64,000 nucleotides of DNA from Cyclobacteriaceae bacterium (GTDB lineage: Bacteria > Bacteroidota > Bacteroidia > Cytophagales > Cyclobacteriaceae). The translations under genes were made by a program, and so were the position numbers. The stretch spans positions 26,321-90,320 of the forward strand of contig JBJXEB010000112.1 in NCBI GenBank assembly GCA_046155095.1. The letters are read 5' to 3'. Below, one piece after another: positions 1 to 46,739 of the stretch. Under the pieces are notes generated by a model that saw nothing but the letters and a program-made list of their open reading frames with translations, was not told the DNA's origin and searched no databases. Position 1 is the stretch's first letter. Every line of letters starts with the position of its first letter.

Positions 1-1
1 A

Positions 2-640: not shown

Positions 641-644
641 TGTA

Positions 645-1346: not shown

Positions 1347-1349
1347 TCT

Positions 1350-2066: not shown

Positions 2067-2069
2067 CAA

Positions 2070-4554: not shown

Positions 4555-4581
4555 TCATTCACAATTAAAGTTTAGATACTT

Positions 4582-5541: not shown

Positions 5542-5550
5542 CTGAGAGTT

Positions 5551-6504: not shown

Positions 6505-6524
6505 CTATTTTATAAAATTGAAAT

Positions 6525-7265: not shown

Positions 7266-7290
7266 CCTTTAACTATAGTTGACTTTATAT

Positions 7291-11795: not shown

Positions 11796-11797
11796 TA

Positions 11798-16925: not shown

Positions 16926-16935
16926 TTTGGGATTT

Positions 16936-18078: not shown

Positions 18079-18091
18079 TCATAAGACAAGA

Positions 18092-19575: not shown

Positions 19576-19591
19576 ACTATATTCTCGGCTC

Positions 19592-27025: not shown

Positions 27026-28309
27026 TTGAACCTATTTACCATATTTTTATTTTTTATATTTTCCTATTTTCTGTTTATCTGGAAAATGGGGAAGATATAT
27101 CCGATATTATATCTTTTCTTATTCACCTATTTTTTACAGTATGTATTTTCAGTGTACTTGATATATAATGAATATGAGGTGTTGCGTAGACAAATGCCTA
27201 TTGGAGAGCAAGAACTTTTCGATTATGTTATTCCTGCTTTACTATTCTTATTTGCAGGCGTTTTTATTTTCAATAGAGATATCCCAATACTAGAGTGCTT
27301 AAAAAGGATTGACAGGAAAGACGCAGCTAACTTAGGGCACTTACTAGTGTCCGTTTCCCTGATTTTTGACGGTCTTGATTTCCTCAATATTCCTGGCGTT
27401 CATTCCATTCACTCTTTTACCTATTATCTTAAATTTAGTGGAGCAATGTGTTATTTCTTTGCACCATCAACACCAAATTATGCAGTACTCTTTTTTGTGT
27501 TTCTCAGTCTTGTACAACATGCCTTGTATGGTGGAGTGTTTATCGATTTTTTCATGTGGTCTACCTACCTATTTATTATCGTATCGTTAAGGTATGAATT
27601 GTCATTTAAAATTCGGTTGTCTTTTATTCTTTTAGCAGCTCCGGTTCTAATAATAGTACAATCTGTCAAGAGCGAGTATAGAGAAGCCACTTGGAATGGC
27701 AAGCGAGAAACAGGTATTGGGCTGGTTAAGGATCTTGCACAAAAGAAACAAGAGAAAGAGAATGATCCTTTCGAAAGATCGGACGGTGTAGTAAGAACGG
27801 TTGGTCGATTGAACCAAGGTTGGCATTTAGGGAAGGTACTTAGATGGGTGCCAAAACATGAACCGTTTTCAGGTGGCGATGATATTTTAGGTGATATTGA
27901 GGGGACGGTTCTTCCGCGAATCTTTTTCCCTGACAAAAAGATAATTGGATCGCAAGAGAAGTTCTATAGATACACTGGTCATAAACTTACTTTGGGTACT
28001 TCAATGACTATTGGTGTTTTGGGGGATTTCTATGTAAATTTTGGAAGGTGGGGCTCTTTTTTTATGCTGTTTGTATTTGGGGCATTTGCTGCTCGCGCGT
28101 TACATTTCTTTGTGCGCAAATATGTCTTAACTGACCCGATCAATGTTATATGGATACCTTATCTATTTAGTTATTTGGTTAGAGCAAATAACGATTTTTA
28201 CATTGTATTCAACAATCTGGTGAAAGGGTTTCTTATTTTCCTTTTTATCAATTATGTGCGCAGACAAATTTGGCCAAGTAAAGTACCCGTAAATCGATTG
28301 TTAAAATAG
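27026..28309 (+). CDS. Wzy-like polysaccharide polymerase (multi-TM)
   Basis: About 10-11 hydrophobic segments, a large loop with RLNQG, PRIFFPDK, and GDFYVNFG. Confidence 0.6.
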   Translation: MNLFTIFLFFIFSYFLFIWKMGKIYPILYLFLFTYFLQYVFSVYLIYNEYEVLRRQMPIGEQELFDYVIPALLFLFAGVFIFNRDIPILECLKRIDRKDAANLGHLLVSVSLIFDGLDFLNIPGVHSIHSFTYYLKFSGAMCYFFAPSTPNYAVLFFVFLSLVQHALYGGVFIDFFMWSTYLFIIVSLRYELSFKIRLSFILLAAPVLIIVQSVKSEYREATWNGKRETGIGLVKDLAQKKQEKENDPFERSDGVVRTVGRLNQGWHLGKVLRWVPKHEPFSGGDDILGDIEGTVLPRIFFPDKKIIGSQEKFYRYTGHKLTLGTSMTIGVLGDFYVNFGRWGSFFMLFVFGAFAARALHFFVRKYVLTDPINVIWIPYLFSYLVRANNDFYIVFNNLVKGFLIFLFINYVRRQIWPSKVPVNRLLK

Positions 28310-30804: not shown

Positions 30805-32751
30805 ATGAACAAAATAATTATCAGTCATAAACAGATTAGGAGCGCTCTTCTAATAAGAAAAGTAGAAGAGAAATTCTTGGAGCTTTTTTCCCATGGAAAA
30901 CTAAACGGAACAGTGCATACCTGTGTAGGTCAAGAGTTTTCTGCTATAGCCTTTGCAGGTCAACTAAAGAAGAGCGATTTCATATTCTCTAATCACCGCT
31001 GCCACGGCCATTATATTTCTTTCACCAATGATTTAAGGGGATTGCTGGCAGAGTTAATGGGCAAGAAGACAGGAACGAGTGGAGGAGTAGGCAGTAGCCA
31101 GCATCTATGCAATGGCAATTTTTTTTCAAATGGCATACAAGGAGGCATTGTACCAGTGGCGGCAGGCTATGCCTTGGCAAATAAATTAAAAGAGAATGGA
31201 GCTATTGGCGTAGTTTATATTGGTGATGGGACTCTTGGCGAAGGTACATTGTATGAAACAATGAACATCATTTCCAAATGGCAAATTCCGCTATTAATTG
31301 TTTGTGAAAATAATTTCTACGCACAATCCACACCACAAAATGTAAATCTAGCAGGCGATATTTTAAAAAGATCAGAGGCATTTGATATTAAGACATTTAA
31401 AGGCGATACATGGAATCCTGACATACTTATCGATGAAGCAAAGAATGCTATTGATTTTGTGAGGCAAAGTGGTCAGCCTGGCTTTTTCTTAGTTGAGACC
31501 TATAGACTAAATGCACACTCGAAAGGTGATGATGATAGAAAGCCTGAAGAAGTGCAATCTTACGCGGATAGAGATTTTCTTAACATCTTTCAGAAAGAAT
31601 CCCCTAATTATTACGATAACTATTTGGAGAGTATCACCGCAGAGATTGATTCTTACATAAAGGACATCCTTAGCGAAGATGACCTGTCTTTAGATGAATA
31701 CTATTTAAAGGACAAACTGATTGCTAATCGTAAATGGACGCCCATTGAACCTATCAACAAAAGGCAAGTAGAACTAATCAATGATTTCTTCCATGAGCAA
31801 ATGAACCTAAACGATAAAATTATATTTATCGGTGAAGATATTTTGTCTCCTTATGGAGGCGCATTTAAAGTGGCAAAGGGTCTTTCAGCTAAAAAACCAG
31901 ATCGTGTTTTTTCCACGCCCATATCTGAATCGGCCATCATGGGAATCTCAAATGGACTTGCTTTAAATGGATTTAGACCATTTGCAGAGATCATGTTTGG
32001 CGATTTTATAACGCTGGCTTTTGACCAAATCGTTAACCATGCTTCTAAGTTTTACCATATCTTCAATCATCAAGTAAAGTGTCCCGTTGTACTGCGAACG
32101 CCAATGGGCGGTAGAAGAGGATATGGCCCCACGCATTCACAAACACTCGATAAGTTTTTGATTGGTATTGATAACGTGATTACGGTTGCTGTCAACACAT
32201 TGATTGATCCTGGACTGGTTTTTAATTCGGTCTTAAAACAGGAACACCCTGTTATTATCATCGAGAATAAAGTTGACTATGGAAAAAAAATACTTGCTCA
32301 AAAGAGTAGCAACTTTATCTATGAACGGAATGAAGACGAATTTCCGATCGTAAGAATTCGACCTACATACTCTACTCCAGATATAACTATAGTAGCGTAC
32401 GGTGGCATGGCTGATATTGTTGCCTCAGCGCTGAAAGATATTTTTGTTGAGACTGATCTCAAGCCTGAACTTATTGTATTTACACAAATCTCACCTTTTA
32501 ATCCTGAGTTGATTATTGAATCGGTAATAGTAACAGGCCGCTTAGTGATCGTTGAAGAAGGAAGTGCGGCTGGCGGTATTGGAAGTGAAGTCATAGCTTC
32601 TGTAATGGAGCAAATGAATCAACCTGTACAAGTAAAACGAATTGCAGCATTGCCAGTACCGATTCCATCTGTAAAATCGTTAGAACACATAGTTTTGCCT
32701 GAAAGAAACAGAATTATAGAGGAGATCAACCAACACTTTGTGATAAGATAA
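30805..32751 (+). CDS. Fused alpha/beta TPP-dependent 2-oxoacid-dehydrogenase E1-like protein
   Basis: GTVHTCVGQE, SNHRCHGH, TPP motif GDGTLGEG...ENNFYA, YRLNAHSKGDD; beta part GEDI, TPISE, EIMFGDF, and YGPTHSQ. Confidence 0.9.
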   Translation: MNKIIISHKQIRSALLIRKVEEKFLELFSHGKLNGTVHTCVGQEFSAIAFAGQLKKSDFIFSNHRCHGHYISFTNDLRGLLAELMGKKTGTSGGVGSSQHLCNGNFFSNGIQGGIVPVAAGYALANKLKENGAIGVVYIGDGTLGEGTLYETMNIISKWQIPLLIVCENNFYAQSTPQNVNLAGDILKRSEAFDIKTFKGDTWNPDILIDEAKNAIDFVRQSGQPGFFLVETYRLNAHSKGDDDRKPEEVQSYADRDFLNIFQKESPNYYDNYLESITAEIDSYIKDILSEDDLSLDEYYLKDKLIANRKWTPIEPINKRQVELINDFFHEQMNLNDKIIFIGEDILSPYGGAFKVAKGLSAKKPDRVFSTPISESAIMGISNGLALNGFRPFAEIMFGDFITLAFDQIVNHASKFYHIFNHQVKCPVVLRTPMGGRRGYGPTHSQTLDKFLIGIDNVITVAVNTLIDPGLVFNSVLKQEHPVIIIENKVDYGKKILAQKSSNFIYERNEDEFPIVRIRPTYSTPDITIVAYGGMADIVASALKDIFVETDLKPELIVFTQISPFNPELIIESVIVTGRLVIVEEGSAAGGIGSEVIASVMEQMNQPVQVKRIAALPVPIPSVKSLEHIVLPERNRIIEEINQHFVIR

Positions 32752-32752
32752 T

Positions 32753-34072
32753 ATGAAAGTGCTGCAAGAAATAACTGTTCCCCAAGAATCTGTCAACGAT
32801 CAAAGTTTGATTGTTCTTGAATTATATTTTAAGAACGGTGATAAGGTAGCAAAGGGAGCATTGATTGCTGAATTAGAAACTTCTAAAACCACCGTAACCG
32901 TAGAGGCTGAACAAGACGGCTATGTCCAATACTTCTGTAATGTGGGGGATGACTTAGAAGTAAATTCAATTATTGCCAGAATTTCTGACGAGATTCCTGT
33001 AATTGTGTTAGAAGAGAACAAGATTAACTTACAAAAGCAAAACGTGGTAGCACCCCACTATTCATCTCAGCATTCAATAAAAGAAACGATATTTTCAAAA
33101 AAAGCATTGCTCTTGATGGTTAAGTCGAATATTCAAAAGACTGCCTTTGTTGGGATGGATTTTGTAAGTGAAAAAGATGTCGAAAATATCTTGGGCGGGA
33201 GTACAAAGACAAAAAAAGTAGCCCCCATTAGCGCAAAAGACAGACGAGAAAGCGAAAATGTTGTTGATGATATTTCGAAAGTACAATTAGAAAAAGTAAA
33301 ATCATTCAAGCATAAAGAAATTGGGTACTTAAGCAGCGTACAGTCTGCAGGACTCGTAAGCGTTATTAATGCTATGGTAGAAGTAGAAGGTGTAATAGAT
33401 TACATCAACCAATATACACAATACTTCAAAAATTCTCTATTACCAATTGTTGTATATGAATGCGGTCGGTTATTGCAAAAGTATCCAGCCTTCAATGCCT
33501 ATTTTAACAACGAAAACATTGCCTACTATAAACAGGTTCATGTTGGCTTTGCTGTTGATATGGGCAAGGGACTGAAAGTTTTGAAAATCGCAAATACAGA
33601 AAACAAATCGATAAGAGAAATTGAACAAGAAATCTTTCAACTTTCCAATGACTATCTGGATGAAAAAATTAAAACGGATGTGTTAACCGATATCACGTTT
33701 ACGATCACAGACTTATCAGGCGAAGATGTTTTCTCGTTTACACCCCTTATCAACATGAAGAATTCTGCTATCCTAGGAATTTCTTCGATTGATCAAAAAC
33801 TAAAACGATGTGTGTTGAGCCTTGCCTTTGACCACAGGGTAACCGAAGGTAAGAATGCATCTGTTTTTCTATCAGAACTGAAACAACGTATAGAGTCATA
33901 TCGCTCAAAATTGTTTGATGCAGGCCTTCAATCGAAGTACTTATCAGGCATAAAATGTTATAAGTGTATGAAAAGATTAACGGAAGACCTTTCAGATGCG
34001 GGGTTCGCAAAGTGCATTACTCCGCTAGGTGAAGAGGCTTACATTTGCCAAGCTTGTTTTAAAGGGTTTTAA
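32753..34072 (+). CDS. E2-like lipoyl-domain acyltransferase with C-terminal Cys4 extension
   Basis: Lipoyl motif ELETSK (Lys45), catalytic-domain TITDLSG and FDHRVTEG, and tail CYKC...CQAC. Confidence 0.85.
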   Translation: MKVLQEITVPQESVNDQSLIVLELYFKNGDKVAKGALIAELETSKTTVTVEAEQDGYVQYFCNVGDDLEVNSIIARISDEIPVIVLEENKINLQKQNVVAPHYSSQHSIKETIFSKKALLLMVKSNIQKTAFVGMDFVSEKDVENILGGSTKTKKVAPISAKDRRESENVVDDISKVQLEKVKSFKHKEIGYLSSVQSAGLVSVINAMVEVEGVIDYINQYTQYFKNSLLPIVVYECGRLLQKYPAFNAYFNNENIAYYKQVHVGFAVDMGKGLKVLKIANTENKSIREIEQEIFQLSNDYLDEKIKTDVLTDITFTITDLSGEDVFSFTPLINMKNSAILGISSIDQKLKRCVLSLAFDHRVTEGKNASVFLSELKQRIESYRSKLFDAGLQSKYLSGIKCYKCMKRLTEDLSDAGFAKCITPLGEEAYICQACFKGF

Positions 34073-34075
34073 AAA

Positions 34076-34831
34076 ATGGAATCACTCATAAAACCGATTA
34101 TTGCCGAGTTCTTAAAAGTAGATCAGTCTACGATAGTGGGAAGCACCATTATTGATAGATCAGCAGTGAAAGGTTCTATTTTAGTGCATAGGATGTACGG
34201 TGCCATGGCCAACGCAGGTGTTGTTGTAACTGACTACACCGCAATAAAAACATATGGTCAGTTACTACAAAGATTGAATCCAACTAATAATGAAAATAGC
34301 CCTTTCGTAAATGACATTGAGACAACTGTCGCTTTAAATAGTGAAGGTGTTTCCTCCATCGGTATTGATATAGAACACATAAAGAATATGCCTGCTTGTA
34401 ATGATTATCGGCAAGACGAATTTTATAAGAAAAATTTTTCTCCTCTTGAGATTTCATATTGCGTTCTTCAACCCAATCCGATCATTTCATTTATAGGATT
34501 GTTTGCCGCAAAAGAAGCAATTGCGAAGGCCGACAACACGTATAAGAAAATCCCTTTTGATCAAATAGAGATTGATCATGACCAACTAGGCAAACCGTTT
34601 TTTAAGGAGTTCGATATTTCCATTTCACATGTGGAAGATTTTGCTGTAGCTGTTGCGGTATGGCTGCCGAAAAACACTATCTCTCAATCAGAACTGCCCA
34701 AATCGATGGCCATTGGCTTAAAAGAAATTGATTTGCTTAAAAGGAAGTTAAAATCCTATTCTATAGTCTCGATCATTTCTTTATTAATTGCTTTGGCCGC
34801 CATTTCTATTAGTTTTTTCTTCTTTCGATAG
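34076..34831 (+). CDS. ACP-like domain fused to AcpS-type 4'-phosphopantetheinyl transferase and C-terminal TM helix
   Basis: GIDIE, FAAKEAIAKA, GKP and ISISH AcpS motifs. The N-terminal ~70 aa helical domain has GS34IL at the ACP-Ser position, and the protein ends in a hydrophobic tail. Confidence 0.75.
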   Translation: MESLIKPIIAEFLKVDQSTIVGSTIIDRSAVKGSILVHRMYGAMANAGVVVTDYTAIKTYGQLLQRLNPTNNENSPFVNDIETTVALNSEGVSSIGIDIEHIKNMPACNDYRQDEFYKKNFSPLEISYCVLQPNPIISFIGLFAAKEAIAKADNTYKKIPFDQIEIDHDQLGKPFFKEFDISISHVEDFAVAVAVWLPKNTISQSELPKSMAIGLKEIDLLKRKLKSYSIVSIISLLIALAAISISFFFFR

Positions 34832-35604: not shown

Positions 35605-36542
35605 TGGAAAGAATTTTTATTACAGGTGTGACTGGATTTATTGGACATAACTTAGTTCAGTATTTCAATACTCAACAAAACTTTCAGCTATTTGGCCATA
35701 GCCGCGATAGTGCAAAGGCACGTGTTCAACTAAAGGGTTTGCCTGTAGAGTTAATCGAAACGTATTCAGCAAAAGTGTTTGATGAACGAAGTATTGATAC
35801 AGTCATCCACTTGGCAGGCATTGCCCATGACTTAAGCAATCAATACAAGCCCGATGATTATTACCGAGTTAATTTTGAAAACACAAAAGTCGTTTTTGAT
35901 GAATTTGTAAAATCCAGCGCGAAGAAATTTATTTTTCTAAGTTCTATTAAAGCTGCTGTTGATATTTCTTCAAGAGAGGTGGATGAAAGCGTTGAGCCAA
36001 TTCCGGTAACTGACTATGGAAAGTCGAAAAGAAAAGCTGAAGAGTACATTCAATCAATTCAACTAAGTAACAACAGACACGCTTATATTTTTAGGCCCTG
36101 CATGATTCATGGCAGTGGCAACAAGGGCAATTTGAATTTGCTTTACCGATTTGCCAAAACAGGGTTGCCTTACCCTTTCGGGGCGTTCAATAATCAACGG
36201 TCTTTTTTGACTATGGATAATCTCAGTTTCGTCTTTGAATCTTTTTTAGCTAAAGATATTCCCTCGGGTATTTTTCATTTGGCCGATGAAGGATTTCTTT
36301 CAACAACTGAACTTTATAAACTGATTTCCTTTGAGATTGGCAAGAAGCCAAGAGTGTGGCCTATTCCATCGGGACTGATCCAATTTTTCTTTTCTTTGAT
36401 TGGCAAGCGGGCAACACTCAATAAACTTACCGAAGACATGATGGTTTCAAATAAAAAATTGCTTCGGTATATTGGCCAGCCTTTGCCGATAGAGATGCGC
36501 GAAGGCTTGAAGAAAACAATACGGTCATTTCATGGAGCTTAA
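35604..36542 (+). CDS. NAD-dependent epimerase/reductase (WbpV/WbpK/Gnu-like)
   Basis: GVTGFIG, HLAGIAH, YGKSK, RPCMIHG, NKGNLNLLY, and NQRSFL. Confidence 0.85.
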   Translation: MERIFITGVTGFIGHNLVQYFNTQQNFQLFGHSRDSAKARVQLKGLPVELIETYSAKVFDERSIDTVIHLAGIAHDLSNQYKPDDYYRVNFENTKVVFDEFVKSSAKKFIFLSSIKAAVDISSREVDESVEPIPVTDYGKSKRKAEEYIQSIQLSNNRHAYIFRPCMIHGSGNKGNLNLLYRFAKTGLPYPFGAFNNQRSFLTMDNLSFVFESFLAKDIPSGIFHLADEGFLSTTELYKLISFEIGKKPRVWPIPSGLIQFFFSLIGKRATLNKLTEDMMVSNKKLLRYIGQPLPIEMREGLKKTIRSFHGA

Positions 36543-37506
36543 TCAGACTCTCTATTTCTCCCTTATTGGTCTTTTGCTATTTGCGATCGAGTTGATCTAC
36601 TTTCGCGTTGCTATTAGGTTTGGTATTGTTGATAAGCCCAATAGTCGTAGCTCTCATGTAAAGCCAGCTATTCGGGGTGGAGGGATCATTTTTGTTTTTG
36701 CTGTCTTGGTATGGTCTGGGAGTCATGATTTTTCGTTGCCTTGCTTTGTATTTGGGGCATGTGCTATTGCTGTAATCAGTTTTTTGGATGATGTGATGTC
36801 ACTCAATCCATTGGTGCGCTTTCTTATTCAGCTATTGGCAGTAGTACTCCTATTCTACCAAATAGGGCCAAGCAGTTGGCCTGCCTATTTGTTGGTGTTG
36901 GCCGTGATTGTGTGCATAGGCACTCTGAATGCCTTTAATTTTATGGATGGCATCAATGGCATCACTGGCGTCTATGCTTTAGTGGCACTAATTTCATTTT
37001 CATATATTCACGTACAGATGATTGCTTTTACAGAGCTATCGCTCATCATTGTTGTCTCCATTTCCGTACTAGTCTTTTTGTTTTTTAATTTCAGAAAGCG
37101 TGCGCAGTGCTTTGCGGGCGATGTGGGTAGCGTTACCATTGCATTTGTTTTGATATTCCTTTTGCTTCAGTTGATCTTGGTAACAAATAATTTTTTATGG
37201 CCGCTGCTTTTTCTAGTTTATGGTACAGACTCCATCGTTACCATTATTTTCAGGATTAAAAGAAGAGAAAATATTTTTAAGCCGCACCGAACTCACCTAT
37301 TTCAGCACTTGTCAAATGAGCTAGGATGGCCTCATCTGACTGTTTCATTAACGTACGGTGCCATCCAGTTACTTTTTAACACCATTCTTTTCATTACCCT
37401 TAGTCGTCATCAATATGTTGTCCCAATTGTATCGGCAGTAATCTTCATCGTTGTGTATTTAATTATCAGGATTAAAATTGTGCGGCATATCTCAAAAAGT
37501 GAATAG
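36532..37506 (+). CDS. MraY/WecA-like polyprenol-P HexNAc-1-P transferase (WbpL-like)
   Basis: DKPNSRSSH, RGGG, DD, NAFNFMDGINGI, FAGDVGS, and PHRTHLFQ. Confidence 0.9.
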   Translation: MELNQTLYFSLIGLLLFAIELIYFRVAIRFGIVDKPNSRSSHVKPAIRGGGIIFVFAVLVWSGSHDFSLPCFVFGACAIAVISFLDDVMSLNPLVRFLIQLLAVVLLFYQIGPSSWPAYLLVLAVIVCIGTLNAFNFMDGINGITGVYALVALISFSYIHVQMIAFTELSLIIVVSISVLVFLFFNFRKRAQCFAGDVGSVTIAFVLIFLLLQLILVTNNFLWPLLFLVYGTDSIVTIIFRIKRRENIFKPHRTHLFQHLSNELGWPHLTVSLTYGAIQLLFNTILFITLSRHQYVVPIVSAVIFIVVYLIIRIKIVRHISKSE

Positions 37507-37515
37507 ATTTGGGGG

Positions 37516-38091
37516 ATGTACATTTCTTATTTTAAAAGAGCTATTGATATTTTTCTTTCCTTGATAGTCATCGTTCTATTTGGATGGCTCTTCCTATTGA
37601 TCATCGTTTTGTACTGCATCACTTTTCAATTCCCACTTTTCTTTTTTCAAGAGAGGATAGGTAAAGATCAAAAGCCCTTTCTCTTGATAAAATTCAGATC
37701 ACTGATCAACTCAGATCAATCACTACAAATGAGACGGTTTTGGCTAGGTGATCTACTGCGTTTCTTTTCATTGGATGAACTTCCTCAGATTTGGAATGTA
37801 TTGAAGGGTGAAATGTCCTTCATTGGTCCACGACCGCTGCCGACAGAATACTTGCCCTTGATGAACGTAGATCAACGAGTACGTTATAAAGTTCTACCTG
37901 GCATCACCGGTTGGGCACAAGTGCGCGGCCGTCATTCACTTTCGTGGGATCAGAAGTTTGAATTAGATAGCTATTATGTGAATCATTTATCACTTGGTTT
38001 AGATTTGCGCATTCTATTCAAAACGATTGTATTACTTTTATCCTTTCGAAAGGATCAATCATTACTGGAAGAAAAATTCAAAGGCAATTGA
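37516..38091 (+). CDS. PglC-like monotopic phosphoglycosyl transferase (Bac_transf)
   Basis: KRAIDI, QERIG, KFRS, SLDELPQIWNVLKGEMSFIGPRP, and PGITGWAQV. Confidence 0.9.
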   Translation: MYISYFKRAIDIFLSLIVIVLFGWLFLLIIVLYCITFQFPLFFFQERIGKDQKPFLLIKFRSLINSDQSLQMRRFWLGDLLRFFSLDELPQIWNVLKGEMSFIGPRPLPTEYLPLMNVDQRVRYKVLPGITGWAQVRGRHSLSWDQKFELDSYYVNHLSLGLDLRILFKTIVLLLSFRKDQSLLEEKFKGN

Positions 38092-38729
38092 TACAAGATA
38101 TCGCAATTTACGGGGCAGGAGGATTGGGCAGAGAAATGGCCTTGATGATTCAGCAAATCAATAAAGTTAGCAATCAGTGGCACATCATTGGGTTTTTTGA
38201 TGATGGGCTAAATCGAAACAATAAAGTTGACAATTGGATAGTATTGGGTGGGCTTACGGAGGCAAATGTATGGGACAGAAAATTAGCCTTGGTTTTGGCC
38301 ATAGCAGATTCTCATGTTCGTTTTAAATTGGCAGAGCAATTGATCAATCCGCAGTTGAGTTTCCCCACATTGATACACCCATCGTGCAATACGGGTAGCG
38401 AACAAAACCAATTTGGCAAAGGCGTACTTCTTGCGGCTAACGTGGTGTTGACTACGAATATTAAACTTGAAGATTTTGTGATCGTCAATTTAGCAACAAC
38501 GATTGGGCATGATGTTACGATTGGTAAATGTTCTTCTATTATGCCAGGTTGTAGCATTTCAGGGAATGTAAAAATAGGGGAGAAGAATCAAATTGGCACA
38601 GGTGCGCGATTCTTGCAAAATATTTCAATCGGTGACGACTCTGTTGTAGGTGCTGGTGCAGTGGTAACAAAAAGTTTTCCTGCTAATAGTAGGCTGATAG
38701 GTGTGCCAGCTACTAATTTTGAGAAATGA
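38088..38729 (+). CDS. PglD/NeuD-like sugar N-acetyltransferase
   Basis: IYGAGGLGRE, GFFDD, TLIHP, IGHD, hexapeptide repeats, and GVPA. Confidence 0.88.
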   Translation: MIQDIAIYGAGGLGREMALMIQQINKVSNQWHIIGFFDDGLNRNNKVDNWIVLGGLTEANVWDRKLALVLAIADSHVRFKLAEQLINPQLSFPTLIHPSCNTGSEQNQFGKGVLLAANVVLTTNIKLEDFVIVNLATTIGHDVTIGKCSSIMPGCSISGNVKIGEKNQIGTGARFLQNISIGDDSVVGAGAVVTKSFPANSRLIGVPATNFEK

Positions 38730-39271
38730 ATTGGAGAGAAAACTTACCAGCTCTAAAATTTCTTGGAATATTCCTTGGTGTCTATCTGGCGGGCAATTTA
38801 CTGTATGGCTTTTACATAGAATTGAATTACCCATTGGCAGATCATGCTACGATTTGGGTATCCCATCAATCGTCCGTACTCATGAATTTGTTATTTGGCA
38901 CGCAAACGACATCGGTGATGAGTCCCGTTAGCCCCGTTTCTTTGATTTTGGAAAACGGAAAAGTAATCCTTCGAATTTATGAGGGCTGTAATGGCCTCAA
39001 CGTAATGATTGTGTTTGTCGCCTTTATCCTTGCCTTTAGTGGCCCTTCAAAACGAGGTGGCATTTTTATCTTAATCGGACTGGTTGCAATCCATTTGGCA
39101 AATCTTTTTAGGATCACCCTATTGTTTTGGGTGGCGAAGCATTACGAAAGCTACTTTTATTACGTCCACAAATATGTTTTTACGGCCGCGCTCTATGTAA
39201 TTGTGTTAGGGCTATGGTGGATTTGGGTATACAGAATCATGAAGGCAAAAGCCACCCAGTATGAAGGATAG
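38726..39271 (+). CDS. xrtF: Exosortase family protein XrtF
   Basis: IYEGCNGLNV (catalytic Cys), NLFRI (Arg), and HKYVF (His) in a multi-TM protein. Confidence 0.85.
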   Translation: MNWRENLPALKFLGIFLGVYLAGNLLYGFYIELNYPLADHATIWVSHQSSVLMNLLFGTQTTSVMSPVSPVSLILENGKVILRIYEGCNGLNVMIVFVAFILAFSGPSKRGGIFILIGLVAIHLANLFRITLLFWVAKHYESYFYYVHKYVFTAALYVIVLGLWWIWVYRIMKAKATQYEG

Positions 39272-39695
39272 AACTCGAATCGTTCTAATTCTTATTTGCG
39301 GGCTTGCTGCTCTTGCCCTTTTATATGTTTTTCAACGTACTAGCTACGGATTGATTTTGTTCCAGGCACTTGGGTTGACCCCCAATGAAAATTTGATTTT
39401 TATAATCAACAAAACATTACGATTACTGGCTAATGATTTTGTTTGTGTAGTTATGATTTTTTCTATTTTCAAAGAAAAGAATTATCGGCAGGTGACATTG
39501 GCTGTATTTCTTATCGAGTTTGTAGTGATTTTGCCATTTTACTTTTTGCTTAAATTAAATTTAGAAGGAAGCAGCGAACTATCGTCTCCCTTGCTTTCAT
39601 TTATTCACAGGTTGATTGTAAACCCCACCTTAATGATCTTGACGGGAATGGCACTGGCGTACCAAAAATTTGTTTTTCCTACTTTGCGAAAATAA
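39261..39695 (+). CDS. Exosortase F system-associated membrane protein
   Basis: NKTLRLLAND and SFIHRLIVNP motifs, four TM segments, directly downstream of xrtF. Confidence 0.75.
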   Translation: MKDRTRIVLILICGLAALALLYVFQRTSYGLILFQALGLTPNENLIFIINKTLRLLANDFVCVVMIFSIFKEKNYRQVTLAVFLIEFVVILPFYFLLKLNLEGSSELSSPLLSFIHRLIVNPTLMILTGMALAYQKFVFPTLRK

Positions 39696-40792
39696 TGAAG
39701 ATTCAAATCCCACTTTCGCATTCGCCCATAGTCGTAGAGGACTTAGCAAAAGTCCTCAAGGAATTTGAAGGTCAACCGCATGAAGAGATCATCAAGGCTT
39801 TTGAAAGCAAGCTGTGCGAGATAACGGCTAGCCCATTTGCTGTAGCATTAAATTCAGGTACCTCAGCGCTTCATTTGGCTTTAAGTGTGTTGGGAGTATC
39901 AACAGGTGACTTAGTTCCTGTATCTACTTTCACTTACGTAGGATCAGTCAGCCCGATTCGATACCTAGGTGCTCACCCTGTTTTTATTGATAGCGAAGAG
40001 GAAACGTGGAACATGGATCCAGATTTATTGGAAGCTTGTTTACAGGAGTTATCAAGCAAAGGCCAATTGCCCAAAGCCATATTAGTTGTCCACTCTTACG
40101 GCATGCCAGCAAAAATGGATGAACTTACATCTATTTCTAAAAAATTTGAAGTGCCTATCGTTGAAGATGCTGCGGAGGCACTCGGTGCTACGTATAAAGG
40201 CAGGCCAGCGGGCAGCCTAGGCGATATTGGGGTGTTGTCATTCAATAGCAACAAAACCATAACCTCATTTGGGGGGGGGGCATTGCTACTCAAATCCAAA
40301 GAGCAATATGACCGAGTGAAATTTTTAGCTGGCCACTCACGCGAAAACCTTCCATATTATGAACATCATGAGATTGGTTATAACTACCGAATGAGCCCGT
40401 TGAATGCAGCCTATGGCTTGTCTCAACTAGGAAGCATTGACGAAAAGATCAATCAAAGAAGGGCAACGTTTGAGTATTATAAAACCCACTTACAGCCATT
40501 AGGTTTTTCTTTCTTAGATGAGCCAAATGGTTTATTTTCAAGTAGATGGCTTTCCGCTATTCTGCTTAAATCGGGTATGGATCCCTTAAAGATTCAAGCA
40601 AAATTAGCCATGGTGGGAATTGAAACCCGCCCTTTATGGAATCCAATGCATTGCCAGCCTGCGTTTATTGGGGAAAAGACTTATTTGAACGGATTGGCTG
40701 AGGGGCTATTTAAGGCGGGCTTATGCTTGCCATCAGGAGGCAATTTTTCAAAACGGATACTAAATAAGCTCATATCTGAAATCAAGATTTAG
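39695..40792 (+). CDS. PglE-like DegT aminotransferase
   Basis: ALNSGTSALHLAL, EDAAEALG, SFNSNKTITSFGGG, GYNYRMS, and LCLPSG. Confidence 0.88.
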   Translation: MKIQIPLSHSPIVVEDLAKVLKEFEGQPHEEIIKAFESKLCEITASPFAVALNSGTSALHLALSVLGVSTGDLVPVSTFTYVGSVSPIRYLGAHPVFIDSEEETWNMDPDLLEACLQELSSKGQLPKAILVVHSYGMPAKMDELTSISKKFEVPIVEDAAEALGATYKGRPAGSLGDIGVLSFNSNKTITSFGGGALLLKSKEQYDRVKFLAGHSRENLPYYEHHEIGYNYRMSPLNAAYGLSQLGSIDEKINQRRATFEYYKTHLQPLGFSFLDEPNGLFSSRWLSAILLKSGMDPLKIQAKLAMVGIETRPLWNPMHCQPAFIGEKTYLNGLAEGLFKAGLCLPSGGNFSKRILNKLISEIKI

Positions 40793-40834
40793 AATATGTC
40801 TACCCTTTGATTGCCTTAACCAATTAAAAGTGGT

Positions 40835-40853
40835 TACTTTTGAGTTATATTTG
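40835..40853 (+). promoter_or_regulatory. Putative promoter of the T9SS-cargo gene (two tandem TAnnTTTG motifs)
   Basis: TACTTTTG at 40835-40842 and TATATTTG at 40846-40853, 26 nt before the ATG at 40880. Confidence 0.55.
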
Positions 40854-40879
40854 CAATAAAAGTTGATTTAAAGTCTACT

Positions 40880-43800
40880 ATGAGATCATTCAAAGGCGTT
40901 CTAATTGGAAGTTTATTAATCTTGGTTAGCCACCTCAGCATTGCTCAGAGATTTGCAGTTGCTTCAACTGGATGGAGTTCGACTAGCACTTGGTCGGCTT
41001 CAAGAGGAGGGGCATCGGGTGCTTCTGTTCCAACTAGCTCAGATGATGTTTATTTGGATGGGTTCAGTGTAATTTTAGCTGGTGGTACCAATGGTGCGTG
41101 CAATAACTTATATGTTCGTGACGTAACTAACAGCATTAGAGGTGGAGCAGGCACAAACACCATTACAATTTCTGGAGAGCTTGCAGTTCTAGACAACTCC
41201 GATGCGTATGTTATTCCAGTAAATTCAGTCATTCAAAGTTCATCTTCTTTAACTTTCATTTTTATAGCAAATGCTCAGGATGCTGTAAATGTTGATGGTT
41301 GGAGCACATCTGCTTCAATAAGAAAAGTTACATTTAATCCAGGTATTGGTAATACCATTACTCTACCCAATTTTGCAGTTGCTGCCTCGGGTGTATTGAC
41401 AGTTTCATCCGGTACATTGAATTTGACTGGTAACCTACAAGGTGCATCAAGTGCATCAATTTTAGTTAATTCAGGGAGTACATTGCTTGTTTCAAGTGGT
41501 AGTATTAGCGGAAATGGAACTAATTCAACAAAGTTCCCCTCTCTAACGGTCAATGGTACTTTGACTAGTCAGAATAATACAACATCTTTTGTAAACGCTG
41601 ATGTTATTGCGCTTAACTCAGGTAGTGTTTTTAATGTAGGTTATAATGGTTCCAATCAAACTGAAGCTTGGTGGTATCAAAGCATTTCCCCAAGTTCACA
41701 GACAATTGATCCTGCATCAACTTTTAATTTCAACTCTTCTACATCGCAGAATGTTTTTGCTCAATCTTACGGTAATCTTATATTAAGTGGTTCGTCAACG
41801 ACTAAGACTGTTTCTGGAGCAGGTTCTATAAATATCAAAGGAAATCTTTCATTCAGCAATACAAACATTACCTTCACAGTATCTTCTTCCAATCAAGTTA
41901 TCTTTGATGGGACTGGCTCTCAAGGCATCAATGGCGGTGGAACAGCCAATTTCAATGGAGGCCTTCAAGTAAACAAACCTACGGGCATTCTTCTGCTTGC
42001 CCAGAATGTTACCGTTCAGAATGGACTAACCATCGCATCGGGGGGTACTATAGATTTGGGATCGAGTACGTTCACACTATCTGGCAATTTGTCGAATGAT
42101 GGTACCTTTGCTCCTACCAATAGTACAACCATTAATGCTGGAACAACAGCTATTTCAGGTAGCTCTACTACTTCATTTAATAATCTAACCATTAGTCCAT
42201 CTGGGTCGCTATCTGCTCCCAATGGAAATGTCAACATCGCAGGCGATTTTGCAAATAATGGAACCTTCACAGCCAATGCAGGTACATTGGTATTCAATGG
42301 AAGTGCTGCACAGTCTATTACGGGAACTATCTCTGCTAACAACATTACTGTGTCAAATCCTGCTGGTGTCAACAACAACGGAACGCTCACTTTGAACGGC
42401 ATTTTGAATTTGACGGGCACTGGTGCATTCAATGCTAACGGAGCGGGTGCTGGCACATTAACCTTGGCCTCTAACGGGCTTTCTTCTAGTGGCATGATCG
42501 GGGCGCTTAGTATCCCCACTAATTTTAGTGGCACTGTAACGGTCCAGCGCTTTATCAATGGGCCAGGCGATTGGCGTTATTTTTCCATGCCCATCACCAA
42601 TGGAACTGTTGGAACTTGGAAGGCAGCGTTTCCCACTACGGGTAGTTTTTCGGATCCTAGCCCAAATGGGGTCAACGGGGTGATAGATCAAACAGCGGCA
42701 TCCATTTACTATTATGATGCTCCTACCCAAGCCTACGTGGCTGTGGGCAGCGGTATCTCAACTGGTTCTACTACACTTTTCAATACGGTTGGTTATTCGG
42801 CATATACTTATCTGACAGGTAATTTTACAATCAATGCCACGGGCTCCATCGCAAAAGGCACGGTCAATATTCCATTGAATACAACGTCCCCCGGCTGGAA
42901 TCTTGTGCCCAATCCATATCCATCTGCAATAGACTGGAACCTGATGAATCGCACAGGCCTCAGCAATACAATGAACTTAAGGATAACCAACGGAACATTT
43001 GCTACGTATGTGGCTGGTGCTGGCACTTGCACGGGTTGTGGGTTCAACACCAATTGGAGGGGAGAAGTACCAATTGGCCAATCTTTTTGGATAAATTCTA
43101 CCAGTGCCACCAATTTAGGGTTGACAGAGGCAGTAAAAACAACCACGCAACCCACTTTTGTAAGAGAGGCAACAGCAGAAAATTTTGTTCGCATTACATT
43201 GAACTCACCCACTCAAATAGACGATGCTGTAGTAATGTTTAAGCCAGGTGCCTCTGCTAGTTTTGACCCTGCCTATGATGGACCAAAAAGAAAGAACGGA
43301 AATTATATTTCCTCGCTAGGAAGGAACAGTTACATGAATATATCTAGCTACACGAGCGATCCTTTAGCAGACATGGCTATTAATGTATTACCCACACTGG
43401 CTTGCCAAGGTGCAGTAAAGCTTAAAGTGTCGGATGTGCCAGCGGGCAACTATTCCCTAAAATTTACTGAGCTAGAATCGATGAGCTTGGGTTACGCGAT
43501 TCTTTTGAAGGATAATTTTTTAGGGACTCAGCGTACGGTAAGCAACAGCATGGTTTATTCTTTTGATGTGACGGCTGATCCCACTTCATTTGGAGATACT
43601 CGCTTTGAGTTACAGTTTTCTGCTCCCTCCATTTCAACATTAAGTTCACAGTCGTTTACGGCCAATAGCACGTGCTCATCGAGTAATATTGGTTTCCAAC
43701 TTAGCAATTCGCAGCGTGGTATTAACTATCAATTTTTTATGGGCACTAATTCAGTAACCCCAGAAGTATTGGGGAACGATGGAGTTATTTCCTTTTTTGT

Positions 43801-44647
43801 CGACAAAAGCGCGTTGAGCATTGGTGCTAACTCGATTACTGTAAAAGCAACTACCCCAGGCGGGTGTTCCACCATGAATTTTCCTAATATCATCACCTAT
43901 AAATATGATAAGGTATCCGAGGTTTCCAATGTAGTGAATGCTACAAGTTGTGGCCCTGGATCGGTCTCTCTAAAAGTATCCGGAGCTCCATCCGATGGTA
44001 GTTATAGGTGGTATGGTTCCCCAAATAGTACAACTCCTATTGTTGGTGCCACTCAAGATACATTTACAGCTAAGTTAGATTCCACCAAGTGGTTTTATGT
44101 GGCTGCTGTAAATGCGTTGGGTTGCGAAAGTGTTGTAAGAGCTAAAGTAATTGCAGAAGTGGTTAATCTAGTAGTACCCTTGGTAACAATGACTGGAAAC
44201 ATGTTGAGCGTACAAAAAGGCTTGCCAAATCAACAATGGTACAAAGACGGTAATGCAATCAGTGGTGGAACCACTCCAACATTGGATGTTACCAGCTCAG
44301 GTAGCTATAGCGTAACAACAACTGACAAAGGATGCAGTAAGTCATCGGATAACATTGTAATGACAATCACCGCTATTGATGATGGCGTTGAATACGAAAT
44401 AAAGGCTTACCCTAATCCAGTATCTAGCCTTCTGTTTATAAAGATACCATCAACGCAAATTACATCTCTAAAATCAATAGTTATGTTTGATGGCAAGGGG
44501 AGTGTAGTTACATCTAGTGATTCTAATTCTAGTCTTTTAGATGTAGGAGTGAAAACTATCGATATGAGCGAGCAACCAATGGGGTTATACTTAATCAAAT
44601 TTTTAATTGGAAGCGAAGTAAAATCAATTAAGATACTTAAGAGATGA
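40880..44647 (+). CDS. Large T9SS type-A CTD-containing surface protein (beta-helix-like repeats, Ig-like domains)
   Basis: Signal peptide ending LSIA|Q; G/N/T/S-rich repeats; Ig-like YRWY..P; C-terminal AYPNPV...GLYLIK...KILKR CTD. Confidence 0.88.
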   Translation: MRSFKGVLIGSLLILVSHLSIAQRFAVASTGWSSTSTWSASRGGASGASVPTSSDDVYLDGFSVILAGGTNGACNNLYVRDVTNSIRGGAGTNTITISGELAVLDNSDAYVIPVNSVIQSSSSLTFIFIANAQDAVNVDGWSTSASIRKVTFNPGIGNTITLPNFAVAASGVLTVSSGTLNLTGNLQGASSASILVNSGSTLLVSSGSISGNGTNSTKFPSLTVNGTLTSQNNTTSFVNADVIALNSGSVFNVGYNGSNQTEAWWYQSISPSSQTIDPASTFNFNSSTSQNVFAQSYGNLILSGSSTTKTVSGAGSINIKGNLSFSNTNITFTVSSSNQVIFDGTGSQGINGGGTANFNGGLQVNKPTGILLLAQNVTVQNGLTIASGGTIDLGSSTFTLSGNLSNDGTFAPTNSTTINAGTTAISGSSTTSFNNLTISPSGSLSAPNGNVNIAGDFANNGTFTANAGTLVFNGSAAQSITGTISANNITVSNPAGVNNNGTLTLNGILNLTGTGAFNANGAGAGTLTLASNGLSSSGMIGALSIPTNFSGTVTVQRFINGPGDWRYFSMPITNGTVGTWKAAFPTTGSFSDPSPNGVNGVIDQTAASIYYYDAPTQAYVAVGSGISTGSTTLFNTVGYSAYTYLTGNFTINATGSIAKGTVNIPLNTTSPGWNLVPNPYPSAIDWNLMNRTGLSNTMNLRITNGTFATYVAGAGTCTGCGFNTNWRGEVPIGQSFWINSTSATNLGLTEAVKTTTQPTFVREATAENFVRITLNSPTQIDDAVVMFKPGASASFDPAYDGPKRKNGNYISSLGRNSYMNISSYTSDPLADMAINVLPTLACQGAVKLKVSDVPAGNYSLKFTELESMSLGYAILLKDNFLGTQRTVSNSMVYSFDVTADPTSFGDTRFELQFSAPSISTLSSQSFTANSTCSSSNIGFQLSNSQRGINYQFFMGTNSVTPEVLGNDGVISFFVDKSALSIGANSITVKATTPGGCSTMNFPNIITYKYDKVSEVSNVVNATSCGPGSVSLKVSGAPSDGSYRWYGSPNSTTPIVGATQDTFTAKLDSTKWFYVAAVNALGCESVVRAKVIAEVVNLVVPLVTMTGNMLSVQKGLPNQQWYKDGNAISGGTTPTLDVTSSGSYSVTTTDKGCSKSSDNIVMTITAIDDGVEYEIKAYPNPVSSLLFIKIPSTQITSLKSIVMFDGKGSVVTSSDSNSSLLDVGVKTIDMSEQPMGLYLIKFLIGSEVKSIKILKR

Positions 44648-44838
44648 AACAAATGAAGTTGGCTTTTTTCCTTTTGATAATCACTCTATTCCCCTTTGTT
44701 TTAAAGGCGCAACCTGGAGACCCTGGAGGGGGTGGAGTCCCAGGTGTGCCTATTACTGGAATAGAAATCCTTATAGGTGCAGGTGGAGCGTTAGGGCTTA
44801 AGAAAGCATGGGATAACAGAAAGAAAAAAAATAAATAA
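44644..44838 (+). CDS. PID-CTERM-like microprotein (signal peptide, short Pro/Gly spacer, VPITG, TM helix, basic tail)
   Basis: MKQMKLAFFLLIITLFPFVLKA|QPGDPGGGGVPG-VPITG-IEILIGAGGALGL-KKAWDNRKKKNK; ATGA overlap with the upstream gene. Confidence 0.75.
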   Translation: MKQMKLAFFLLIITLFPFVLKAQPGDPGGGGVPGVPITGIEILIGAGGALGLKKAWDNRKKKNK

Positions 44839-44840
44839 TC

Positions 44841-46739
44841 TTGCTTGTCCGTTCAATTCGAAATATAAAAATCCTTCCCCGCTGGGTTATCATATTCATT
44901 GATCTAGCGATTATCTCTTTCTCTTGTTTTTTAGGTTACATCCTTCGCTTTAATTTTTCCCTAACTGACCTTGAGCACAGCAATTTTGTTCAAGGCACAC
45001 TTTTTTACACCTTATTTGGCGCAATTGCTATTTTAAGCACAAGCAGCTACAAAGGAATCATTCGCTACACTGGTCTTCAAGATGGGGTACGAATTATTAT
45101 AATGGTTTTTTTGAATGCGGTACTTTGTTCAATAGCCAATCTTATTTTGCATTACAATTCTATAGGCAACGTGGTGCCTTATTCTGTTATCATTATTAGT
45201 TTTTTATCATCTTCTCTTTTGCTTTTCAACTATAGACTTCTAGTTAAATACTTCTTTGCCTATTATAAGAATGTCATTTTTAAAAAATCAAGAGTACTCA
45301 TATATGGAGCTGGGCAAACGGGAATTATTACAAGGCATGTGATAGACTCCTCTCCAAGAACTCAGACAGTTGGGTTCATAGAAAATGATAGAAACAAAGT
45401 AGGCAAGGTGTTGGATGGTGTGAAGATTTATAAAGCAGATCAAGAGGATATAGAGCAGCTTTTTAAGGATATAGGAGTGGATGAATTGGTCATCACCATA
45501 AAGGATATTTCACTAGAGGAGAAAAATGAATTAGTAGATATATGCATCAAAAACCTGGTTAAAATCCGCACGATACCACCCGTAGAGAAATGGGTGCGCG
45601 GAGAATTGAGTTTCAATCAGATCAAAGAAATCAACATTGAAGATTTGCTTGGACGTGAGTCTATCAAGTTAGATAAGCAAAGCGTTAAATCTGATCTGCG
45701 CGGCAGAAAGGTTCTTATTACGGGTGCAGCAGGATCTATCGGTAGCGAGTTGGTTCGTCAAGTGATGCAGTATGACCCAGGAAGTCTGATACTGATTGAT
45801 CAGGCTGAGTCTGATCTTTATGCCATTGAGAGGGAAATAAAGACTCATGATTCAAGAGCCACTGTAACACTTTACTTGGCAGACATAACCAATCGTGATC
45901 GACTAAAATCAATTTTTGAGTACCACAGGCCAGATTTGGTTTATCATGCTGCTGCGTATAAGCACGTTCCCATGATGGAGAGCAACCCATCAGAGGCTGT
46001 GCTGTGCAACATCCTGGGCACTAAACTTCTAGCAGATCTCTCTGTGGAGTATAAGGTTTCTAAATTTGTAATGATCTCAACAGATAAGGCGGTGAACCCA
46101 ACCAATGTAATGGGCTGCTCTAAGAGAATTGCTGAGATTTATGTTCAATCCTTTAATAATTTTTTAGTTCAAAAAGGAGGCGGTACATCTTTTGTGACCA
46201 CACGCTTTGGAAATGTATTGGGGTCTAATGGATCTGTCATCCCCATGTTCAAGAAGCAAATTCAAAGTGGGGGACCAATCACGGTCACACATCCAGAAGT
46301 GACAAGGTATTTTATGACCATACCAGAGGCATGTCAGTTGGTATTGGAGGCAGGAACAATGGGTAAAGGTGGTGAGATTTTTATTTTTGATATGGGGCAA
46401 GCCATTAAGATTGCTGAATTGGCTAAGAAGATGTTGTACCTTTCTGGACTTGAACCAGGGCGAGATATAGATATTGTATTCACTGGCCTACGCGAAGGTG
46501 AAAAATTGTATGAAGAGTTGTTAAACAAACACGAGAATACTATCAATACTCACCACTCTAAAATCATGATTGCTAAGGTGAAGGAATACGAATATGAGGA
46601 AATCAATAAACTTATAGACTTATTTCATGATCTCGTCTATGATAATAATGAGTTAAAGATGGTTGCTTTGATGAAAGAACTAGTTCCTGAGTATAGAAGT
46701 AATTATTCACGCTACGAAGTTCTTGATAAGGCTGAATAA
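44841..46739 (+). CDS. CapD/PglF/WbpM membrane-bound UDP-GlcNAc 4,6-dehydratase
   Basis: Four N-terminal TMs, IEDLLGRE, GAAGSIGSE, HAAAYKHVP, STDKAVNP, and RFGNVLGSNGSVIP. Confidence 0.92.
   Translation: MLVRSIRNIKILPRWVIIFIDLAIISFSCFLGYILRFNFSLTDLEHSNFVQGTLFYTLFGAIAILSTSSYKGIIRYTGLQDGVRIIIMVFLNAVLCSIANLILHYNSIGNVVPYSVIIISFLSSSLLLFNYRLLVKYFFAYYKNVIFKKSRVLIYGAGQTGIITRHVIDSSPRTQTVGFIENDRNKVGKVLDGVKIYKADQEDIEQLFKDIGVDELVITIKDISLEEKNELVDICIKNLVKIRTIPPVEKWVRGELSFNQIKEINIEDLLGRESIKLDKQSVKSDLRGRKVLITGAAGSIGSELVRQVMQYDPGSLILIDQAESDLYAIEREIKTHDSRATVTLYLADITNRDRLKSIFEYHRPDLVYHAAAYKHVPMMESNPSEAVLCNILGTKLLADLSVEYKVSKFVMISTDKAVNPTNVMGCSKRIAEIYVQSFNNFLVQKGGGTSFVTTRFGNVLGSNGSVIPMFKKQIQSGGPITVTHPEVTRYFMTIPEACQLVLEAGTMGKGGEIFIFDMGQAIKIAELAKKMLYLSGLEPGRDIDIVFTGLREGEKLYEELLNKHENTINTHHSKIMIAKVKEYEYEEINKLIDLFHDLVYDNNELKMVALMKELVPEYRSNYSRYEVLDKAE

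Follow-up and report, generated by a model that had tools for sequence, protein, structure and literature searches.

An XrtF-lineage exosortase, a candidate mini-protein substrate and a type IX secretion cargo gene interleaved with a PglC/D/E/F-like amino-sugar pathway in Cytophagales

In a Cyclobacteriaceae-like (Cytophagales) bacterium, a large surface-polysaccharide locus ends in genes that interleave an exosortase of the XrtF lineage with a PglC/PglD/PglE/PglF-like amino-sugar pathway. We analyzed this eight-gene block, at 37516-46739 of a 64,000-nucleotide (nt) stretch of DNA (hereafter, the window), which also encodes a small membrane partner of XrtF, a type IX secretion system (T9SS) cargo protein and a 64-amino acid (aa) microprotein that resembles a bare exosortase sorting signal. 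The full order, PglC-PglD-XrtF-partner-PglE-cargo-microprotein-PglF, recurs in about 90 species-level Cytophagales genomes, with proteins 30-60% identical, and two published Flavobacterium johnsoniae mutants that behave like the xrtF mutant can be assigned to the microprotein family and to the PglE orthologue. As the best overall explanation we lean towards an XrtF enzyme with its own dedicated substrate, the two being tied to the synthesis of an amino-sugar glycan and to type IX surface attachment; the acceptor chemistry in this reading is inferred. The genes are as follows.

36532..37506, + strand: WecA-like (Glycos_transf_4) initiating transferase (PF00953, 78.8 bits), immediately 5' of the block and given as context only
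37516..38091, + strand: PglC-like small monotopic phosphoglycosyl transferase (Pfam Bac_transf PF02397, 177.6 bits)
38088..38729, + strand: PglD/NeuD/VioB-type amino-sugar N-acetyltransferase (TIGR03570, 188.6 bits against a cut-off of 160.8; PglD_N)
38726..39271, + strand: XrtF-lineage exosortase (TIGR04128, 115.6 bits against a cut-off of 90)
39261..39695, + strand: XrtF-associated small polytopic membrane protein, 144 aa (TIGR04127, 27.2 bits against a cut-off of 35)
39695..40792, + strand: PglE-like sugar C4 aminotransferase (PF01041, 273 bits; top PDB match PglE 1o61, E 2e-82)
40880..44647, + strand: T9SS type A cargo, 1255 aa (PF18962, 32.7 bits against 27; TIGR04183, 23.4 against 23; Ig_7 PF19081, 46.8 bits)
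44644..44838, + strand: 64-aa microprotein, candidate dedicated XrtF substrate (three-part sorting signal; no family match at E 10)
44841..46739, + strand: PglF/CapD-like membrane-bound UDP-GlcNAc 4,6-dehydratase, the final gene of the locus (PF02719, 397.6 bits; PDB PglF 5bju, E 5e-94)

The 64-aa microprotein (MKQMKLAFFLLIITLFPFVLKA|QPGDPGGGGVPGVPITGIEILIGAGGALGLKKAWDNRKKKNK, with the bar at the predicted signal-peptidase site, ..LKA|QPG) begins with a signal peptide, which is followed by 12 residues of Pro/Gly linker, the PITGIE motif, a membrane helix rich in Gly and a basic tail; it is an exosortase-type three-part sorting signal without cargo. No other open reading frame (ORF) ending in this way turned up when the 5.2-Mb genome was searched in six frames by regular expression. 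With ten orthologues as the seed, a profile retrieved 976 proteins of 59-80 aa, nearly all annotated as "hypothetical", from Cyclobacteriaceae, Ohtaekwangia, Marivirga and Flammeovirgaceae. The initial annotation of the window had called the microprotein PID-CTERM-like, a label that stands as a statement of homology and fails as one of membership: the curated PID_CTERM model (NF046080/PF28310, cut-off 26 bits) gave no match to it at E 10, and Marivirga-type relatives scored 22-24 bits, below the cut-off and over the membrane helix and basic tail only. The profile of the window's clade, for its part, recovered PIDGG mini-proteins at 25-37 bits, and in a joint alignment PIT-GIE aligned on PIDGG and the A-Q-P signal-peptidase site was invariant; the PID-CTERM mini-proteins of exosortase X (XrtX) thus have a divergent homologue in the microprotein. 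The NCBI annotation already calls the Formosa mini-proteins PID-CTERM; a literature search for the term "PID-CTERM" returned no paper containing it. Linkers differ within the family, since half of the genus-level microproteins (loci L018, L020, L021, L022 and L023) carry a CPxPPC cysteine pair in the linker, and the window microprotein and most other Cytophagales copies have acidic linkers of the GDPGGDPD type. In one Roseivirgaceae metagenome-assembled genome (MAG), two tandem microprotein genes lie 3' of the cargo gene (L059, 15455-15895).

The exosortase is the only one in its genome. Besides exceeding the XrtF cut-off, it matches the exosortase/archaeosortase signature TIGR04178 (56.5 bits, cut-off 23) and, below the cut-off of 170, the XrtX model NF046081 (103.1 bits); canonical XrtF members score 195-243 bits on TIGR04128, versus 115.6 for the window enzyme. 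In a maximum-likelihood tree, the window clade (100/97) and the canonical XrtF clade (100/94) formed a joint clade (100/96) apart from XrtX and XrtY, so that the window lineage is a Cytophagales sister clade of canonical XrtF. The residues G87-C88-N89, N126, R129 and H148-K149-Y150 were invariant in 12 aligned sequences, and C88, R129 and H148, the conserved Cys, Arg and His of the active site, are the putative catalytic positions in the light of the ArtA studies. The partner is a weak match, below the TIGR04127 cut-off, and reciprocal BLAST with canonical partners gave matches at about 1e-5.

We profiled the exosortase and the mini-proteins over 301 complete Bacteroidota genomes, sampled evenly. 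Of these, 98 had an XrtF- or XrtX-like gene and 85 a mini-protein match, and 83 of the 85 were exosortase-positive; the two exceptions, among the 203 exosortase-negative genomes, were weak (E 7e-4 and 1e-3). The co-distribution is patchy within families, and it is therefore not merely a clade effect. Where canonical XrtF is the only or main exosortase, a mini-protein was found in 18 of 21 genomes, unlinked to xrtF, and both the window's genome and that of F. johnsoniae have a single exosortase and a single mini-protein. The proposal that the microprotein is the likely XrtF substrate is thus strengthened by its single copy in the window's genome and by the near confinement of mini-proteins to exosortase-positive genomes (83/85).

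Synteny was evaluated in 12 genus- or order-level loci and 80 further species-level loci (Cyclobacteriaceae, Ohtaekwangia, Chryseolinea, Flammeovirgaceae and Roseivirgaceae by record title), with loci of sufficient flank as denominators. The order PglC-PglD-XrtF-partner-PglE was found in 11 of the 12, PglE standing ahead of PglD in two loci, and was followed by (cargo)-microprotein-PglF-DUF6089-sucC wherever the flank was long enough and the cargo present; the twelfth locus (L026) has an XrtX-like enzyme with neither pgl genes nor partner. SucC was about 93% identical among these loci, versus 30-60% for the module proteins. Among the 80 loci, the partner lay directly 3' of xrtF in 78/78, PglD directly 5' of it in 69/78, PglC upstream in 61/66 and PglE adjacent in 51/58, and the microprotein gene was 4.7-8.4 kb 3' of xrtF in 38/45. 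PglF followed the microprotein gene in 37/45 loci and in eight further genomes, which were examined whole after the microprotein was found missing from the fetched locus. All eight contained one or two mini-proteins: in three these were just past the fetched flank, and the other five were Chryseolinea with a split locus. The cargo-microprotein-PglF order was visible in six of the eight, and in the other two the contig starts too near the mini-protein to show all, or any, of the cargo. In about 40 loci, an ORF of 1100-2100 aa precedes the microprotein, usually with -4 to +19 nt between its stop and the microprotein start, and the start of pglF comes -4 to +81 nt after the microprotein. The locus thus consists of two conserved sub-modules, [PglC-PglD-XrtF-partner-PglE] and [T9SS cargo-microprotein-PglF], which are usually fused, and the recurrence in dozens of species puts the arrangement far beyond chance.

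Some same-genus MAGs seemed to have lost xrtF. This was ruled out, since their contigs break inside the locus while cargo-microprotein-PglF is present; no xrtF was detected for loci L167, L169 and L170 (same-genus genomes G011, G012 and G008), whose contigs stop within the T9SS cargo gene or next to it. MAG assemblies break in this variable locus, and calls of xrtF absence are therefore unreliable.

The neighbors of xrtF and its partner gene in Flavobacteriaceae are a GAF-domain gene, purH, mreBC, an FtsX-like gene and groESL, and pgl genes are not among them, so the interleaving is specific to the Cytophagales clade. The conserved synteny that the initial annotation had looked for thus held in Cytophagales, and one half of the finding it had named as damaging, xrtF away from pgl-like genes in relatives, was made in Flavobacteriaceae. 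The dispersed genes of F. johnsoniae offer genetic evidence. Deletions of xrtF, Fjoh_1449, Fjoh_0651, Fjoh_0334 and the T9SS attachment genes porU and porZ are alike in all seven assays of Table 2 in PMC10936215, and sprA and porV deletions deviate in one assay; the same paper lists Fjoh_0651 as "hypothetical" and Fjoh_0334 as a DegT aminotransferase, and states that the XrtF substrates are unknown. We located the UW101 genome, Fjoh_0651 and Fjoh_0334 by exact matches of the published primers (PMC10936215). Fjoh_0651 was found through the DR primer, because the junction primer spans the deletion and hence has no match in 401 Flavobacterium genomes. The deletion takes out exactly one 80-aa ORF, MKIVRIIFLVFFLVLNVPNVLADNEPPPPPPAAAKGAASTALAPPAPGLPINQDLPYLIAAGLLLGTAVIYRNKIKKASI, from a monocistronic gene. 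This protein matched the family profile over its full length (32.5 bits, E 1.5e-8 in a proteome-sized search) as the sole match in the genome, and NF046080 did not recognize it; Fjoh_0651 is thus a mini-protein of the microprotein family. The Fjoh_0334 deletion primers bracket the orthologue of the window PglE gene, with a product 45-47% identical to it; its neighborhood reads Epim-WecA-x-PglE-rmlCDA-gmd-fcl-PglF. The "x" is a 141-aa ORF without a Pfam match (L138, 10247-10672), located between the WecA-like gene and Fjoh_0334, in the slot that holds PglC-PglD-XrtF-partner in the window. As a candidate XrtF partner it was rejected, being soluble and unrelated.

The amino-sugar genes and the layout of the block are as the initial annotation had described them. 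All eight ORFs, on the + strand, were confirmed at the coordinates given beforehand, and most junctions overlap: by 4 nt for PglC/PglD, PglD/XrtF and cargo/microprotein, by 11 nt for XrtF/partner and by 1 nt for partner/PglE, with gaps of 2 nt for microprotein/PglF and 87 nt for PglE/cargo. All four enzyme classes of the diNAcBac type (PglF, PglE, PglD and PglC) are present, each closest, among solved structures, to a characterized enzyme. The PglC-like protein matched the diNAcBac-1-P transferase PglC (8e37, E 4e-41) over its full length and the PglD-like protein matched 4m9c, 4m98 and 3bss, so that, with 1o61 and 5bju, the claim of a complete PglC/D/E/F-like set is borne out. PglF, PglE and PglD resemble the makers of a UDP-2,4-diacetamido-2,4,6-trideoxyhexose (diNAcBac type), the product stereochemistry being not readable from sequence, and PglC is the matching lipid-carrier priming transferase. 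In many relatives, a second PglC paralogue occupies the slot of the upstream WecA-like gene.

Taken together, these findings suggest the following mechanism. Quite probably, the microprotein is a dedicated substrate of XrtF and its partner, which is cleaved and transferred. Signal peptidase would cut the microprotein at A|Q, and XrtF would then cut at the PITGIE motif on the outer face of the inner membrane, freeing some 14 residues, QPGDPGGGGVPGVPIT, in the form of an acyl-enzyme to be handed to an acceptor. The predicted mature peptide consists of Pro, Gly and Asp. Much more tentatively, and with the odds rather against it, the acceptor may be, or may depend on, the amino-sugar glycan made by the flanking genes, and the product may be needed for surface display of PorU/PorZ-dependent T9SS cargo.

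Several points weigh against this account. We know of no biochemical evidence for cleavage or transfer by an exosortase in Bacteroidota. The linker sequence varies, and the peptide itself has no obvious function. In the 301-genome sample, 15 of the 98 exosortase genomes had no mini-protein match, and co-occurrence with T9SS has no discriminating power, as the T9SS C-terminal domain (CTD) is found in 238 of the 301 genomes and is missing from one family only. Physical linkage is not required, given that Flavobacteriaceae have xrtF, the pgl-like genes and the mini-protein gene in separate places. The N-terminal Gln of the mature peptide probably cyclizes, following the Bacteroidetes Q-rule (PMC5837995). 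The F. johnsoniae phenotype class is broad, with 8/9 validated mutants losing zorbs (PMC10936215), and the shared pattern is therefore weak evidence for a single pathway, which it supports and does not prove; loss of an aminotransferase could harm the surface for unrelated reasons.

Mere co-location could also underlie the locus: the xrtF pair and the cargo-microprotein pair would have been inserted into a conserved itrA/qhbA/qhbB/gdr-like diNAcBac cassette, at the stable 3' end of an otherwise variable polysaccharide locus, and retained solely because surface components are co-expressed there, and XrtF would still process the microprotein, with an ordinary membrane lipid as the acceptor. The housekeeping neighbors of xrtF and partner in Flavobacteriaceae, the monocistronic mini-protein gene there and the split locus of the Chryseolinea group all fit such an origin. 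Substrates of archaeosortase A and rhombosortase likewise become lipid-linked. For rhombosortase, PMC7468200 names glycerophosphoethanolamine. We nevertheless consider the absence of biochemical coupling unlikely, about a one-in-several prospect, because the interleaving is retained over about 90 species although their proteins share only 30-60% identity, a second exosortase lineage (XrtX, in another class) is likewise joined to a DegT aminotransferase from a different amino-sugar pathway, and the mutant of the PglE orthologue (Fjoh_0334) has the same pattern as the xrtF mutant. Distinctly less probable is that the microprotein stays uncleaved and serves the XrtF-partner complex, or else the export or attachment of the neighboring cargo, as a stable subunit with a single membrane pass, as a regulator or as a pseudo-substrate. 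Its tightest linkage is indeed to the cargo gene and pglF rather than to xrtF, its conservation is limited to the motif and membrane helix, and its stoichiometry with xrtF is 1:1; yet XrtX genomes carry up to 20 mini-protein genes per exosortase, a ratio that suits substrates better, and the protein has the classic three-part exosortase signal, homologous to the curated PID-CTERM domain.

The initial annotation had favored protein glycosylation of the Campylobacter/Neisseria Pgl kind, with XrtF-processed peptides or T9SS proteins as the acceptors of a diNAcBac-linked glycan. Apart from the full PglF/E/D/C set inside a glycosyltransferase-rich locus, we found no specific support for this classical form, and rate it as highly unlikely. 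The eight genes include no oligosaccharyltransferase or O-antigen-ligase-like gene (the rest of the window was scanned in part), and the mature peptide of about 14 residues has no sequon and a single Thr, inside the cleavage motif. The order transferase-acetyltransferase-aminotransferase-dehydratase is, moreover, typical of ordinary capsule and O-antigen loci, such as the Acinetobacter K loci. In line with the protein-sorting half of the same proposal, the F. johnsoniae xrtF, partner, Fjoh_0651 and Fjoh_0334 mutants match the porU/porZ pattern. A more specific form of the sorting account, which we regard as improbable, makes the microprotein a ribosomally made, single-use linker or anchor: XrtF would transpeptidate the 14-residue stub onto an amino sugar of the PglC-primed, lipid-linked glycan, and to the anchor, or anchor part, so made PorU/PorZ would fix T9SS type A cargo, including the giant protein whose gene is next upstream. 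If this were true, T9SS surface anchoring would have its missing inner-membrane half in the Bacteroidota exosortases, and the first exosortase substrate, acceptor and product would be defined.

The cargo protein has a signal peptide, a low-complexity N-terminal region, an all-beta central domain, Ig_7 and a Por_Secre_tail C-terminal domain. The N-terminal approximately 520 residues (window 40880-42440) are rich in Ser, Thr, Gly and Asn, of low complexity, and diverge far faster than the central domain; tblastn matches to the cargo usually begin past residue 350-450. The central domain is kept in 50 loci, and an AlphaFold 2 (AF2) model predicts all-beta sandwiches (pLDDT 85.9). With this model, Foldseek gave nothing below E 0.008 (TM about 0.13) and no significant PDB fold match, and a PDB sequence search with the cargo gave no match, so that no enzymatic role can be assigned. 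The window's genome contains at least 18 CTD matches.

Positions 1-46739 form a single long + strand polysaccharide locus, of which the block contains the last genes. An asparagine-synthase-like amidotransferase is encoded at 8279-10132 (TIGR01536, 416 bits; TIGR03108, for the XrtA/PEP-CTERM system amidotransferase, 345 bits, below the cut-off of 817), a class that Veith et al. (PMC7468200) tie to exosortase loci. At 16146-20698, WbuZ/HisF2 and WbuX acetamidino genes are followed by those for a WbpB-like oxidoreductase, a WbpD-like acetyltransferase and a WbpE-like aminotransferase; the locus thus has another amino-sugar pathway besides the PglC/D/E/F-like one, and in P. gingivalis a pathway of this type provides the linking sugar for T9SS. 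Just 5' of the block and in the same operon, 30805-34831 holds E1/E2 2-oxoacid-dehydrogenase-like and phosphopantetheinyl-transferase genes. Four scanned ORFs had no family match (24067-25188, 27026-28309, 14791-16149 and 20709-21857). By Pfam and NCBIfam, no oligosaccharyltransferase of the PglB or the PglL/O-antigen-ligase family was found among the eight module genes, nor among the other window genes scanned, a scan that left out the ORFs at 1-8229, 10132-12907, 14022-14777 and beyond 52068. A promoter and terminator scan of 34-49 kb of the window yielded counts no higher than the shuffle expectation. The sequencing runs that hold the window are DNA runs only, from biofilter metagenomes.

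Exosortases were predicted in 2006, and to our knowledge none of them has been given a defined substrate-acceptor pair. The F. johnsoniae study (PMC10936215) is the only experimental paper on XrtF that we know of. In the window, what is predicted to be one transcription unit combines XrtF and its partner with a minimal candidate substrate, the genes of an amino-sugar pathway and a T9SS cargo gene. These four gene classes lie dispersed in the tractable F. johnsoniae, for which two published mutants turn out to affect the mini-protein (Fjoh_0651) and the PglE orthologue (Fjoh_0334). With these two existing mutants identified, the substrate question becomes directly testable, and the block and the Flavobacterium mutants together name a likely substrate for an enzyme with hitherto unknown targets.

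We finally compared the block with known exosortase, T9SS and Pgl systems. The top solved-structure matches of its four sugar enzymes are the C. jejuni PglF/PglE/PglD/PglC enzymes and the acetyltransferase domain of Neisseria PglB (4m98); the Pgl systems differ in having a PglB- or PglL-type oligosaccharyltransferase, which is not among the eight module genes. As in PEP-CTERM/XrtA (EpsH) systems, the window exosortase lies inside a polysaccharide locus with a Bac_transf priming transferase and an Asn-synthase-like amidotransferase, and the window PglC-like protein matches TIGR03013 below the cut-off. Unlike XrtA, with its many and often large PEP-CTERM substrates, the window enzyme belongs to another subfamily, has a single cargo-less substrate candidate and comes from Bacteroidota, not Proteobacteria.

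The PorU system offers a parallel in chemistry. PorU is an outer-membrane enzyme, unrelated to exosortases, and we know of no exosortase or mini-protein in its attachment pathway. As a transpeptidase, it joins a protein C-terminus to an amine on the amino sugar of a lipid-linked glycan; in P. gingivalis and T. forsythia, the PorU sortase attaches T9SS cargo to the anionic lipopolysaccharide, A-LPS, at its Wbp/Vim linking sugar (PMC7468200, Veith et al.). The window locus likewise has WbpB/D/E-like genes and a T9SS type A cargo gene, and a connection between the two may be supposed by inference only.

Canonical XrtF (Fjoh_1448, with partner Fjoh_1449) shares with the window a partner gene immediately 3' (in the window a weak TIGR04127 match) and one divergent mini-protein per genome, the two enzymes being in sister clades, whereas canonical XrtF loci have housekeeping neighbors, with the mini-protein and pgl-like genes elsewhere. 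The XrtX/PID-CTERM system (NF046080, NF046081 and NF046082; PF28310) likewise has a small exosortase, a polytopic partner just 3' and cargo-less mini-proteins of 60-80 aa, built like the window microprotein from a signal peptide, a Pro/Gly linker, a P-I-x-G motif, a helix and a basic tail. In curated XrtX systems, the mini-protein gene adjoins the exosortase gene, and in a canonical example, a genome of the same order, XrtX scores 248.8 bits, its NF046082 partner 148 bits and the PIDGG mini-protein encoded directly upstream 50.4 bits. The window enzyme, by contrast, falls in the XrtF clade (103.1 bits on the XrtX model, cut-off 170), its microprotein has PITGIE instead of PIDGG and no NF046080 match, and 5-8 kb separate its mini-protein gene, behind the T9SS cargo, from that of the exosortase, with PglC/D/E/F interleaved. 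XrtX, too, occurs beside sugar genes. In family f58, a Bac_transf gene is directly 5' of the exosortase. In family f39, from another Bacteroidota class, a DegT aminotransferase gene is directly 5' of XrtX in 12 of 19 genomes from six genera, and the loci read WbpA-WbpB-formyltransferase-DegT-XrtX-partner-DUF4147/MOFRL (glycerate-kinase-like)-VWA (L123, 3930-12169, and L122, L147-L152, L154, L156, L161 and L162), with 1-20 PIDGG mini-protein genes per genome. The XrtX operon of f39 and the XrtF block of the window thus represent two exosortase lineages attached to two different amino-sugar pathways.

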